Part shown: positions 38,520 to 40,367 of the stretch, in pieces | How positions within the stretch are numbered: position 1 is the first letter of the stretch | How the letters are laid out: every line of letters starts with the position of its first letter | Assembly (NCBI GenBank): GCA_031835245.2 | Contig: JAVKOQ020000006.1 | Coordinates: 248,001 to 312,000 of the forward strand | Reading direction: 5' to 3' | From: Balamuthia mandrillaris | Lineage: Eukaryota | Length of the DNA: 64,000 nt | The notes under the pieces: generated by a model | What the model was told of the DNA's origin: nothing | The model's database searches: none | The model's input: only the letters and a program-made list of their open reading frames with translations | Made by a program: the position numbers and the translations under genes

Positions 38520-38695
38520 AGACACAAAAAATAACCCACCACCTCCGGCGTGCCTAATCACGGCTTGTCTTACGACTCGCTATAAGCAACGGTGCCGGCA
38601 CCAAAGCAACCTTACCGCCTACCGCCCCCTCACAGAGGAGGAGGAGGAGGTGGTAAGTGCTTGTAAAGTGAAAAAGCGGATCAAGATGTTTCGGG
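38520..38695 (-). ncRNA. Putative Fanzor omegaRNA copy 1 (scaffold ending ...GCCGGAGG at 38542, followed by a ~20-nt guide)
   Basis: Overlaps the Fanzor 3' end as omegaRNAs do; several stems can be drawn; conserved with 42181-42325 up to a sharp boundary. Confidence 0.75.
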
Positions 38696-40367
38696 CGGCG
38701 TTGGCATCTCGATCCGCCTGGTAGCCACACTCGGGTTGAGGGCACCGAAAGGTCTTGTTTCCCCCCAACTGGTGGTGGACTTGGCCGCACTTGCCGCAGG
38801 TCTTGGAGGTGTATTCCTCATCGCAGAGGCAGACCGTACAGGACGGAAATTCCTTGGCCTTGTTGAGGAGCCTCTGCCTGAAGCGATAGTGGGACCAGGT
38901 GAGCATGGCTCTGGCCGTTCGTGAGCCAATGCGGCGGTGGCCTCGCCGCACCATCTGCTGGCTCCTGAACTCTGGCAGAAGGATGAGGGAGAAGTTCCTG
39001 ACCAACCAAGACACGAGCTTCTTGTGGAGGTCATCCACCAGGTTGCGGATCCTCTGGCGAAGCCGAGCAGCGGCCCTTCGAAGACGGCGCCGTTGTCTGT
39101 GGTTGCCCTTGGTGCCCTTACTCTGCATGCGATCCAGGTGGTGGCACAGCTTGCCTATCTCGTTGATGTCCGATTTGCCCCACTCGGTGACCTCCCCGCA
39201 GGCGTTGTAGGTGGTCATGAATGTGCGCACTCCTGGATCCAAGGCGATGATGCCTGCCTCTCTCCTTCGGTGCTCACGGGCTTGGCTCTCGCCCATGAGC
39301 TTCAAAGGCTGAGGCACGCAGAGGTAGTAATGGCCCAGTCGAGTGTCCTTCACCAGACGAACGGCATAGAGCACCTCTGACGGAACTTTGTAGTTCTTGT
39401 CCCTCGCTTTGATTCGCGCCTCCCCGAAGAAGAGTTGGCGGATGGACTTGCTGTGGTTCCACTCCCTGGCTTGGATGCTGAGAGACTGGCTCTTGTCCTT
39501 CCTACCACGGAACTTCATCTGGAATCCAGTCGTGCCTCTGCCCGCCGCCAAGCTGCTTTTCACGCCGTTGAAGAAATCATCGACAGCGTCACTCCGAATG
39601 AATCGAGGAGTTTCCAACACCCACGCAAGGCTCTTGTTCTCTCCCTTGAAATTGCTGTTATTTAGGAATTTCTTCCTGACTTGTTCCTTCATCTCATCAC
39701 GAGGCATTCCTTGATGTTCACGATGGAACTCCACGGCCTTGTTGTAGGTCCATCGTACTGTGCCGAACCACTTGGCCAGCGTCTTCTTTTGTTCTGAGCG
39801 CGGATAAAGGCGGATCTTCTCCACTCGCCCCACTACCGGTTTCTCCTCTCCGTTCTTGCCTTTTTTGGTGAGCTGTACGGCTGGGCGAGACGGAACGAGT
39901 CCCTCGATGAGGCCTAACAAGCCTTTCTGGTTTTTCTCCTCTTCTTCCTTCTCCTTCTCCTTCTCCTTCTCCTCTTCCTCTTCCTCTTCCTCCTTCTCCT
40001 TCTCCTTCTTCTTCTCCTCCTCCTCCAACACCTTTTCTCCGTTAGGAATGTGCTTGCAGGCGGTGAACCATCCTGAACCACAGGCAAAGGGTTCTTCCAA
40101 GCACAAGGCTTCCGGGCGTATTAATCTTCTCCCGATTTCGCTGGAAAACTGGTTCCAAAAGGGCTGGGCAGGTGCAGCCTGCGGCCTACCACGCTTCTGT
40201 GCCCTTGCCTGAGGTGCCGCTGGGGCGTTTTCCGCTCTTCTTTTCCGAGTAGCAGTGGAAGTAGCAGAAGTAGTGGCGCGACCCCCTTCCTTGTGGACCC
40301 GACCGAAGTGGATGGCCAACCCGTGAGAGGTAGCAAACTTTTTTCCGCACTGTGGGCAACTTGCCAT
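38619..40367 (-). CDS. Fanzor2 (eukaryotic IS607-type TnpB) RNA-guided endonuclease, 582 aa, intact
   Basis: KIRLYP...WFGTVRWTYN; RuvC-I IALDPGVRTF; rearranged RuvC-II (ILLPEF plus downstream DEEYTSK); Zn ribbon CGKC...CPQPEC; RuvC-III DRDANAARNI; N-terminal C2H2 CPQC...HFGRVH. Confidence 0.95.
   Translation of the reverse strand: MASCPQCGKKFATSHGLAIHFGRVHKEGGRATTSATSTATRKRRAENAPAAPQARAQKRGRPQAAPAQPFWNQFSSEIGRRLIRPEALCLEEPFACGSGWFTACKHIPNGEKVLEEEEKKKEKEKEEEEEEEEKEKEKEKEEEEKNQKGLLGLIEGLVPSRPAVQLTKKGKNGEEKPVVGRVEKIRLYPRSEQKKTLAKWFGTVRWTYNKAVEFHREHQGMPRDEMKEQVRKKFLNNSNFKGENKSLAWVLETPRFIRSDAVDDFFNGVKSSLAAGRGTTGFQMKFRGRKDKSQSLSIQAREWNHSKSIRQLFFGEARIKARDKNYKVPSEVLYAVRLVKDTRLGHYYLCVPQPLKLMGESQAREHRRREAGIIALDPGVRTFMTTYNACGEVTEWGKSDINEIGKLCHHLDRMQSKGTKGNHRQRRRLRRAAARLRQRIRNLVDDLHKKLVSWLVRNFSLILLPEFRSQQMVRRGHRRIGSRTARAMLTWSHYRFRQRLLNKAKEFPSCTVCLCDEEYTSKTCGKCGQVHHQLGGNKTFRCPQPECGYQADRDANAARNILIRFFTLQALTTSSSSSVRGR

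Follow-up and report, generated by a model that had tools for sequence, protein, structure and literature searches.

We analyzed a 64,000-nt stretch of the Balamuthia mandrillaris genome (GenBank assembly GCA_031835245.2, contig JAVKOQ020000006.1, positions 248,001 to 312,000 of the forward strand), hereafter the window, whose own coordinates are used throughout. On its minus strand lies a multicopy, non-autonomous transposon delimited at its two ends by terminal inverted repeats (TIRs) as well as a target-site duplication (TSD), and the sole gene between its TIRs is an open reading frame (ORF) for Fanzor2, a predicted RNA-guided nuclease. The putative omegaRNA scaffold at the 3′ end of the gene has two candidate ends, an internal one of IS607 type and the right TIR of the transposon itself (Table 1). 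We favor, with a probability of roughly 0.55, restorative homing, in which the omegaRNA would run through the right TIR, take its guide from the host flank, and direct cutting of empty sites next to a target-adjacent motif (TAM), the element then being copied back.

The reading frame runs without a break, as an earlier sequence-only reading of this DNA had claimed, and the RuvC and zinc-ribbon motifs listed there were all located (DPG from residue 377, LPEF from 464, DEEYTS from 516 and DRD from 552). From the N terminus, the 582-aa protein is arranged as a weak C2H2 finger with a lysine/glutamate (K/E)-rich tract, helix-turn-helix (HTH), WED and REC regions, RuvC, and a C4 zinc ribbon. Its catalytic residues D377, E518 and D554 are intact: residue 377 is the aspartate of ALDPG, so that RuvC-I has the DPG motif, the place of the usual RuvC-II glutamate is taken by P465 (in LPEF), the alternative glutamate E518 lies six residues ahead of C524, and the zinc-ribbon motifs CGKC (residue 524) and CPQPEC (542) are followed by the RuvC-III residue D554. 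Fanzor2 is defined by DPG at RuvC-I (Yoon et al., 10.1101/2023.08.09.552727) and by Pro or Gly in place of the RuvC-II glutamate with an alternative glutamate six residues before the zinc finger (PMC13565253, 10.64898/2026.06.23.733943). Alignment to ApmFz2 paired D377/P465/E518/D554 with D324/G416/E467/D501, and the roles of the ApmFz2 active-site residues are described in PMC11832414 and 10.64898/2026.06.23.733943. The Pfam search returned the TnpB HTH domain (PF12323, E 4.2e-10), the TNB zinc ribbon (PF07282, E 9.3e-17), OrfB at E 1.1e-05, under its cutoff, and the N-terminal C2H2 finger (40293-40367, minus strand) at E 0.016, below the Pfam cutoff. The best PDB match by sequence was ApmFz2 (9B0L, E 6.8e-27), and a fold search with a 403-residue model (predicted local distance difference test, pLDDT, 88.1) also placed 9B0L first (E 8.5e-18, template-modeling score 0.69), with the SpuFz1 structures at rank 28 and lower. 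The Fanzor2 identity first proposed is thus supported. By these signatures the protein is assigned to Fanzor2 with a TnpB-like compact fold including the HTH, and RNA-guided, TAM-dependent cleavage is its predicted function. The K/E-rich tract (39930-40030, minus strand) differs in length between copies.

The nearest database proteins are annotated as B. mandrillaris (94%, 84% and 74% identity), and 12 annotated relatives were found on contigs of 12 differing sizes. The nearest eukaryotic, viral and metagenomic proteins are 40-51% identical, most of the top prokaryotic matches are cyanobacterial and lower, at 33-39%, and the genes around the element are fragmented eukaryotic genes (PARP, U1-type zinc finger). 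In a midpoint-rooted FastTree phylogeny of 150 rows, which contained no named reference Fanzor1 or Fanzor2, the protein fell into a 48-row group (Shimodaira-Hasegawa support 96) together with Lipomyces yeast proteins and giant-virus IS607 copies. A C-terminal match was obtained for 150 related loci, 130 of them with a long enough reading frame; the homologues in viral contigs were found with an alignment query, and a single-protein query gave none that was confirmed. A resolvase-like gene accompanies 102 of 159 related loci, and tblastn of the window with the serine recombinase TnpA of two relatives gave nothing better than E 0.30. Two related loci have the complete IS607 form. In one (L081, 636-4152), which adjoins a giant-virus major capsid gene, the Fanzor2 N terminus overlaps the resolvase gene; in the other (L024, 1538-4278), an additional ORF separates resolvase and nuclease, and the CCGG loop and its pairing strand are the same as in the window. 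The scaffold and element ends of the window had no nucleotide-level match in the 159 related loci.

Contig depth was ~27 in the sequence flanking the element versus 3,700-15,700 within it (one skipped repeat bin was lower), a rise of several hundred-fold in a measure that sums contig depth and does not equal copy number; run X1 is fragmented. Loose ends were present at both termini (38443/38444 and 40957), this and all further statements on flanks and loose ends holding among the rows listed, and those at the left terminus start with the additional base that the window copy lacks. The depth jump, the loose ends, the TIRs and the 9-bp duplication together indicate that the mobile unit is a TIR transposon with a long TSD and not an IS607 element. 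IS607 elements have neither TIRs nor a TSD; both are present here, and again at a second insertion in the window, a 40-bp mini element whose 8-bp repeat is accompanied by one additional base and which is possibly a product of incomplete gap repair. A TA duplication of the Tc1/mariner type was ruled out, both window insertions being bounded by 8- or 9-bp repeats; TSDs are ~9-11 bp long in Mutator-like elements (MULEs) and 8 bp in hAT elements. The nuclease gene thus sits in a multicopy non-autonomous TIR transposon, and the earlier proposal, which traced the RNA to a 3′ end of the element at 38541, was wrong as stated, since the mobile unit ends at 38444.

The structured tail of the gene contains the stem, palindrome, tetraloop hairpin and GCCGG strand where the sequence-only reading had set them. 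Its folding beyond chance is moderate (181-nt tail, z −1.97; 126-nt core, z −2.40; 6 of 200 shuffles as good in either case) and strongest in the long stem (z −4.41, 0 of 200). An omegaRNA-like tail is supported, and its predicted structure is conserved in the second scaffold copy. An Rfam search of 38000-43000 gave no match at E ≤ 1, and no exact 21-mer match to the scaffold occurred in viral contigs. The proposed pseudoknot proved to mark a real boundary, of IS607 type, but not the end of the mobile unit: from the end of GCCGG it is 4 nt to the divergence point at 38541 and 101 nt to the end of the TIR. At this boundary the second scaffold copy diverges immediately after GGAGGT, and two X1 contigs depart from the element; their agreement of 0.63 is, by hand, compatible with the second-copy sequence and one other. 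Among the variants listed, no substitution row fell on 38545-38549, which marks the internal strand as conserved within the family; ApmFz2 forms its pseudoknot with positions −4 to 0 (PMC11832414). Because the right end lies ~97 bp past the guide start proposed earlier, such a guide would be fixed in every copy; it is element-internal, polymorphic in its seed, and no target for it turned up in either the window or viral contigs. One derivative, in which 79 bases in 38492-38572 are replaced by 6, lacks the internal guide as well as the pseudoknot strand before it, and occurs in X1 (depth 5.65) and X5 (depth 86.7). Elsewhere in the window, a tandem array with a 7-base period (19237-19300, plus strand; 9 hits) repeats a unit identical to the opening 7 bases of the candidate internal guide, and the match stops at 8 bases.

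When the predicted RNA was extended to the end of the transposon, the TIR paired with the pseudoknot hairpin at a probability of 0.87-0.93, and the right end paired back to the scaffold at 0.55-0.78 (most pairs 0.72-0.78); the equivalent segment of the left end paired poorly (787 of 1000 shuffles as good). No pile-ups of read starts or ends indicative of a discrete small RNA were seen in three random-primed 150-nt libraries, a library type unsuited to that question. A long RNA running through the right repeat is plausible from the modeled pairing, and in insect Fanzor1 both the TIR and the TSD are described inside the scaffold (10.1101/2023.08.09.552727).

The insertion sites provided a motif to go with such an RNA. 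On the left-end side of both complete insertions in the window, GCA immediately precedes a TSD whose first base is G, and the bases past the right TSD are GTA and GAA, not TGC, which makes the motif one-sided. Its complement CTGC was read by eye in all four pooled left-flank rows behind 40957, at offsets 8, 8, 9 and 10; the chance expectation is 0.0165 per flank, three of the four rows being non-independent as RNA runs of one study. The right flank begins with G in eight X1 contigs. A palindromic target preference was ruled out on the two window sites, and neither of them, judged by eye, has the context of a 3′ splice site that would account for the GCAG. The oriented GCAG is placed as a TAM would be if the guide came from the flank past the right repeat. 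It favors such a guide, which the internal junctions oppose but which is better supported than the element-internal one. Spu-1 is reported to be arranged comparably: a CA is conserved upstream of its left repeat, the TAM is CATA, and the guide lies in the 3′ flank (PMC10432273).

Table 1. Features of the Fanzor2 transposon, its scaffold and related insertions in the window
Feature	Position	Strand	Remarks
Non-autonomous TIR transposon	38444-40960	−	2,517 bp, multicopy; depth jump and loose ends
Left TIR	40916-40960	−	~45 bp, imperfect; window copy one G short of the family's TAAGG start
Right TIR	38444-38488	−	in the favored reading would double as 3′ end of the long omegaRNA scaffold
TSD, left copy	40961-40969	−	9 bp, starts with G
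TSD, right copy	38434-38442	−	additional base at 38443
GCAG, predicted TAM (GCA or GCAG) of the empty site	40969-40972	−	at start of TSD; 2/2 window sites and 4/4 pooled rows
Candidate flank-derived guide	38428-38443	−	TSD plus host flank; putative
Fanzor2 ORF	38619-40367	−	582 aa, uninterrupted
omegaRNA core scaffold (predicted)	38541-38666	−	long stem, pseudoknot hairpin, small hairpins, internal pseudoknot strand
Long stem	38662-38652 / 38616-38604	−	
Palindrome (pseudoknot hairpin)	38602-38591	−	
Tetraloop hairpin	38576-38567	−	
Internal pseudoknot strand GCCGG	38549-38545	−	
Candidate internal guide	38521-38541	−	guide of the sequence-only reading; U-rich; common 3-nt deletion at 38536
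Right-end pair-back segment	38449-38467	−	predicted; 38467-38456 with 38561-38571, 38455-38452 with 38597-38600
Second scaffold copy	42180-42309	−	84% identical, no nuclease gene, other sequence past internal end
Left-TIR-like 16-mer and GCAG	42337-42361	−	16-mer 42352-42337, 2 mismatches; GCAG 42361-42358; 14/1000 shuffles
Broken Mutator-like (PF20700) transposase gene	42371-43500	−	5′ half only
Mini element	27837-27876	+	40 bp, fused left and right TIRs; 8-bp TSD 27828-27835 / 27877-27884; GCA 27825-27827

Variation among copies showed that the family has been under purifying selection. Of the 40 best-supported among 114 variant rows, 35 fell within the ORF, and 20 of these were synonymous and 15 replacements, whereas 8.8 synonymous changes would be expected with an identical mutation spectrum and none of 10,000 draws reached the observed number, which makes a recently functional protein likely. 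Two findings argue against a function at present: in the alignment, the intact C terminus of the window protein was matched by 0 of 12 annotated database copies, and RNA depth over the element was low, at ~5-28 with all copies summed versus up to ~4 at the neighboring single-copy gene. Five single-base ORF deletions present in X1 contigs at 11-21% of depth were absent from the RNA reads that overlap them (0 of 196 positions by hand count), and many of the breaks may therefore be sequencing or gene-model errors. The four-gamete test failed at 29 of 105 site pairs among 10 copies (three short or diverged rows excluded), which indicates that copies recombine. Two haplotype blocks are combined in mosaic fashion in the annotated copies, either through gene conversion among copies or through assembly chimerism.

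Restorative homing would join these observations as follows. An IS607-type Fanzor2 would have lost its resolvase and been captured by a TIR element, which a DDE transposase acting in trans presumably moves, producing the 8-10-bp duplications. At capture the scaffold would have been lengthened from ~125 to ~225 nt, the old IS607-type end and a U-rich stretch being looped out, so that the omegaRNA extends through the right repeat with the host flank as its guide. An empty site would present GCA(G) followed by the guide sequence and would be cut, and repair would restore the element. A filled site would offer on its left only 8-10 matching bases behind the motif and on its right a different motif, the repeat's TTA, and this mismatch could discriminate self from non-self. 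Sites bearing the motif would be kept or chosen, giving the oriented bias.

Several observations weigh against homing of this kind. By its duplex energy alone the pair-back did not reach significance, 96 of 1000 shuffles being as good, the 97-nt extension alone was unstructured (z +0.80), and the long form folded at z −1.42 only (8 of 100). RNA depth over 38435-38541 was 1.7, 3.2 and 0.4, compared with 10.3, 9.5 and 4.0 over the core. Among the flanks, four X23 reads give one right flank that begins with T, and CTGC is missing at offset 8-10 on the left-end side of one tandem join. GCAG could also be a preference of the transposase alone, because the mini element, which has no RNA, carries it too. 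Three differing sequences follow the scaffold from the same base, 38541. The pseudoknot strand, complementary to an early hairpin loop, stops 0-5 nt short of the element end in 11 of 16 related families (families with copies in differing flanks, themselves interrelated, counted by eye in the last dozen bases with no shuffle control), a rule with which the internal end (4 nt) agrees no less well than the TIR does (5-6 nt, by hand). The internal pseudoknot also makes the stronger loop duplex (5 bp, −9.9 kcal/mol, versus 4 bp, −6.2 kcal/mol, for the TIR strand).

The observations on the scaffold boundary are what an alternative would predict in which the scaffold ends at the ancestral internal pseudoknot and all copies make one and the same guide, aimed at sister elements devoid of the nuclease, at a different transposon, at a virus or at a locus of the host, with scaffold-only copies such as that at 42180-42309 supplying further guides in trans. 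The second copy diverges exactly past GGAGGT, a third junction lies at the same base in X1, ApmFz2 numbering sets the guide start at ~38541, and loop and strand were complementary in 11 of the 16 tails with a hairpin motif (window included; 5.8 expected; the other 73 of 89 tails had no such motif). We nevertheless regard this alternative as unlikely. The seed of that guide carries a 3-nt deletion that predominates in two runs and is frequent in a third (depth 138.5/169.8 in X2, 251.6/327.5 in X5 and 3715/9868 in X1), and seven of eight listed substitution rows lie within 38508-38525. The best matches to the guide in the window were at chance level, no exact 20-mer match occurred in viral contigs, no join to another upstream sequence was seen among the rows listed, and the oriented GCAG would be left unexplained. 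An antiviral role of the fixed guide was rejected on the viral contigs searched, the two matches of a 19-letter variant pattern lying in unrelated contexts and being attributable to chance by rough estimate. Homing into empty sister elements through a 10-base repeat (40834-40825 / internal guide) was rejected too: although its 9-mer core arose in 101 of 20,000 simulations, the match is cut short by the common 3-nt deletion, and the rows listed contained no join of this kind. Use of both registers, one transcript being folded or processed in two ways so that a short RNA would bear the fixed guide and a long one the flank guide, appears improbable. The same hairpin can form both pairings, and the internal strand is conserved while the insertion sites bear a TAM-like motif, but the fixed guide has no target found in the window or the viral contigs, and the conservation may merely reflect the youth of the family. 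Taken on its own, the proposition that this is a eukaryotic OMEGA nuclease with an element-encoded guide, alone or beside a flank guide, and with scaffold cassettes giving trans guides, is doubtful but worth entertaining: such a guide would mirror in a eukaryote the TnpB steps with fixed guides that led to Cas12-type systems, a subject on which we found one paper, on Cas12k ancestry (10.1101/2025.08.27.672191).

A different possibility is that the IS607-type cassette is a mere passenger amplified by the TIR element, GCAG being only a target preference of the transposase, and that the selection signal predates the capture or stems from two older subfamilies. The missing intact C terminus among the annotated copies, the numerous internally deleted derivatives and the low RNA depth would fit such a history. 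We consider it quite unlikely, however, given that the synonymous excess lies in variants segregating among present copies, that the X1 ORF deletions are missing from RNA and many breaks may therefore be errors, and that TIR transposases do not usually have an oriented motif on one side alone.

A possible earlier stage is preserved 1.4 kb from the element, where a Mutator-like gene (PF20700) breaks off at the left-TIR-like 16-mer and its GCAG. The same junction of gene, 16-mer and scaffold occurs, with one base different, in four X23 RNA reads. The second scaffold copy with this 16-mer shortly after GCAG, lacking a right repeat, may be a relic of the pre-capture stage, known from this one copy. 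Past that copy no degenerate right TIR or TSD was found (822 and 198 of 1000 shuffles) and tblastn gave no match to the C-terminal half of the gene; at the ends of the broken gene no inverted repeats matching the element's TIRs were found. The proteins P0132 and P0133 are Mutator-like (PF20700) relatives of the broken gene; P0132 has an F-box-like stretch (E 7.8e-06) past the matched Mutator region, and P0133 a similar-looking stretch with no Pfam match. On its other side, the element lies ~135 bp upstream of the likely start codon of a multi-exon PARP gene (35932-38298, minus strand) with BRCT, WGR, regulatory and catalytic domains, and points into that gene. Within the element, 85 bases in 40408-40494 are skipped in RNA reads, with GT..AG on the plus strand, antisense to the nuclease gene; the skip was seen in all three RNA runs (8, 2 and 4 reads) and the join in no DNA contig. 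Spliced antisense transcripts thus traverse the left part of the element.

As a nuclease, the protein adds a further member to a thoroughly studied family, for which structures and editors have been published. The interest of the family lies in the re-wiring of an IS607 nuclease upon capture by a cut-and-paste transposon, the proposed route from Fanzor2 to Fanzor1, which is known only from its end points. The family appears to keep the old scaffold end, the new transposon end, and relic copies that break at the old end, and the two registers can therefore be distinguished by RNA ends and a flank census. The TAM, GCA or GCAG, is predicted here from insertion geometry alone, at the start of a long TSD, and would show how restorative homing can work despite duplications that vary between 8 and 10 bp. 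Fanzor2 in a TIR element has already been published; the Balamuthia host and the nested double end we did not find in print. Our search, mostly of open literature without Repbase, turned up no paper joining Fanzor or TnpB with Balamuthia and, judged by titles and abstract openings, none on a nested scaffold end, and Balamuthia is absent from the searchable supplements of PMC10530073, PMC10432273 (one scanned PDF excepted) and PMC10711439.

The closest published counterparts are the Fanzor2* elements of Chloropicon primus and molluscs (10.1101/2023.08.09.552727, PMC10711439), in which Fanzor2 is likewise the sole gene of a non-autonomous TIR element with a TSD and for which an autonomous partner is not identified (10.1101/2023.08.09.552727). 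The Chloropicon protein (Table S3, PMC10711439) has the same ALDPGVRTF and ILLPEF motifs. Their TSDs of 4 nt (TTAN) or 5 nt differ from the 8-9 nt in the window (8-10 implied by the pooled flanks), and the window element differs further, as far as those descriptions extend, in the oriented GCAG at the TSD start, the older scaffold end ~100 nt inside the right repeat, and the amoebozoan host. With ApmFz2, the IS607 Fanzor2 of Acanthamoeba polyphaga mimivirus (9B0L; PMC11832414, PMC10530073), our protein shares the D-altE-D site and, as predicted, a pseudoknot beside the guide. The viral protein has an IS607-type context and the TAM GGG, whereas the window has TIRs and TSDs, no resolvase gene found, a predicted TAM GCA(G), and a longer protein N terminus with the weak C2H2 finger and K/E tract. 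Spu-1 of Spizellomyces punctatus, which encodes SpuFz1 (PMC10432273), is also a single-gene inverted-repeat element with no transposase found between its repeats; conserved bases upstream of its left repeat belong to the TAM, and its nuclease-free ‘ghost’ loci carry RNA, like the scaffold-only copy in the window. It differs in encoding a Fanzor1, in a motif that adjoins the repeat instead of lying 8-10 nt away, and in an RNA of 88-90 nt. The fungal elements ROr-4, PBl-3 as well as MCi-4 described by Bao and Jurka (PMC3627910) are MuDR-like, and MCi-2 has 11-12-bp duplications with a fixed start pattern; all four encode Fanzor1, unlike the Fanzor2 of the window, and MCi-2, again unlike the window element, is without TIRs. 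The first three nonetheless share the 9-bp duplications with the Balamuthia transposon, and all four share its Fanzor-only organization.

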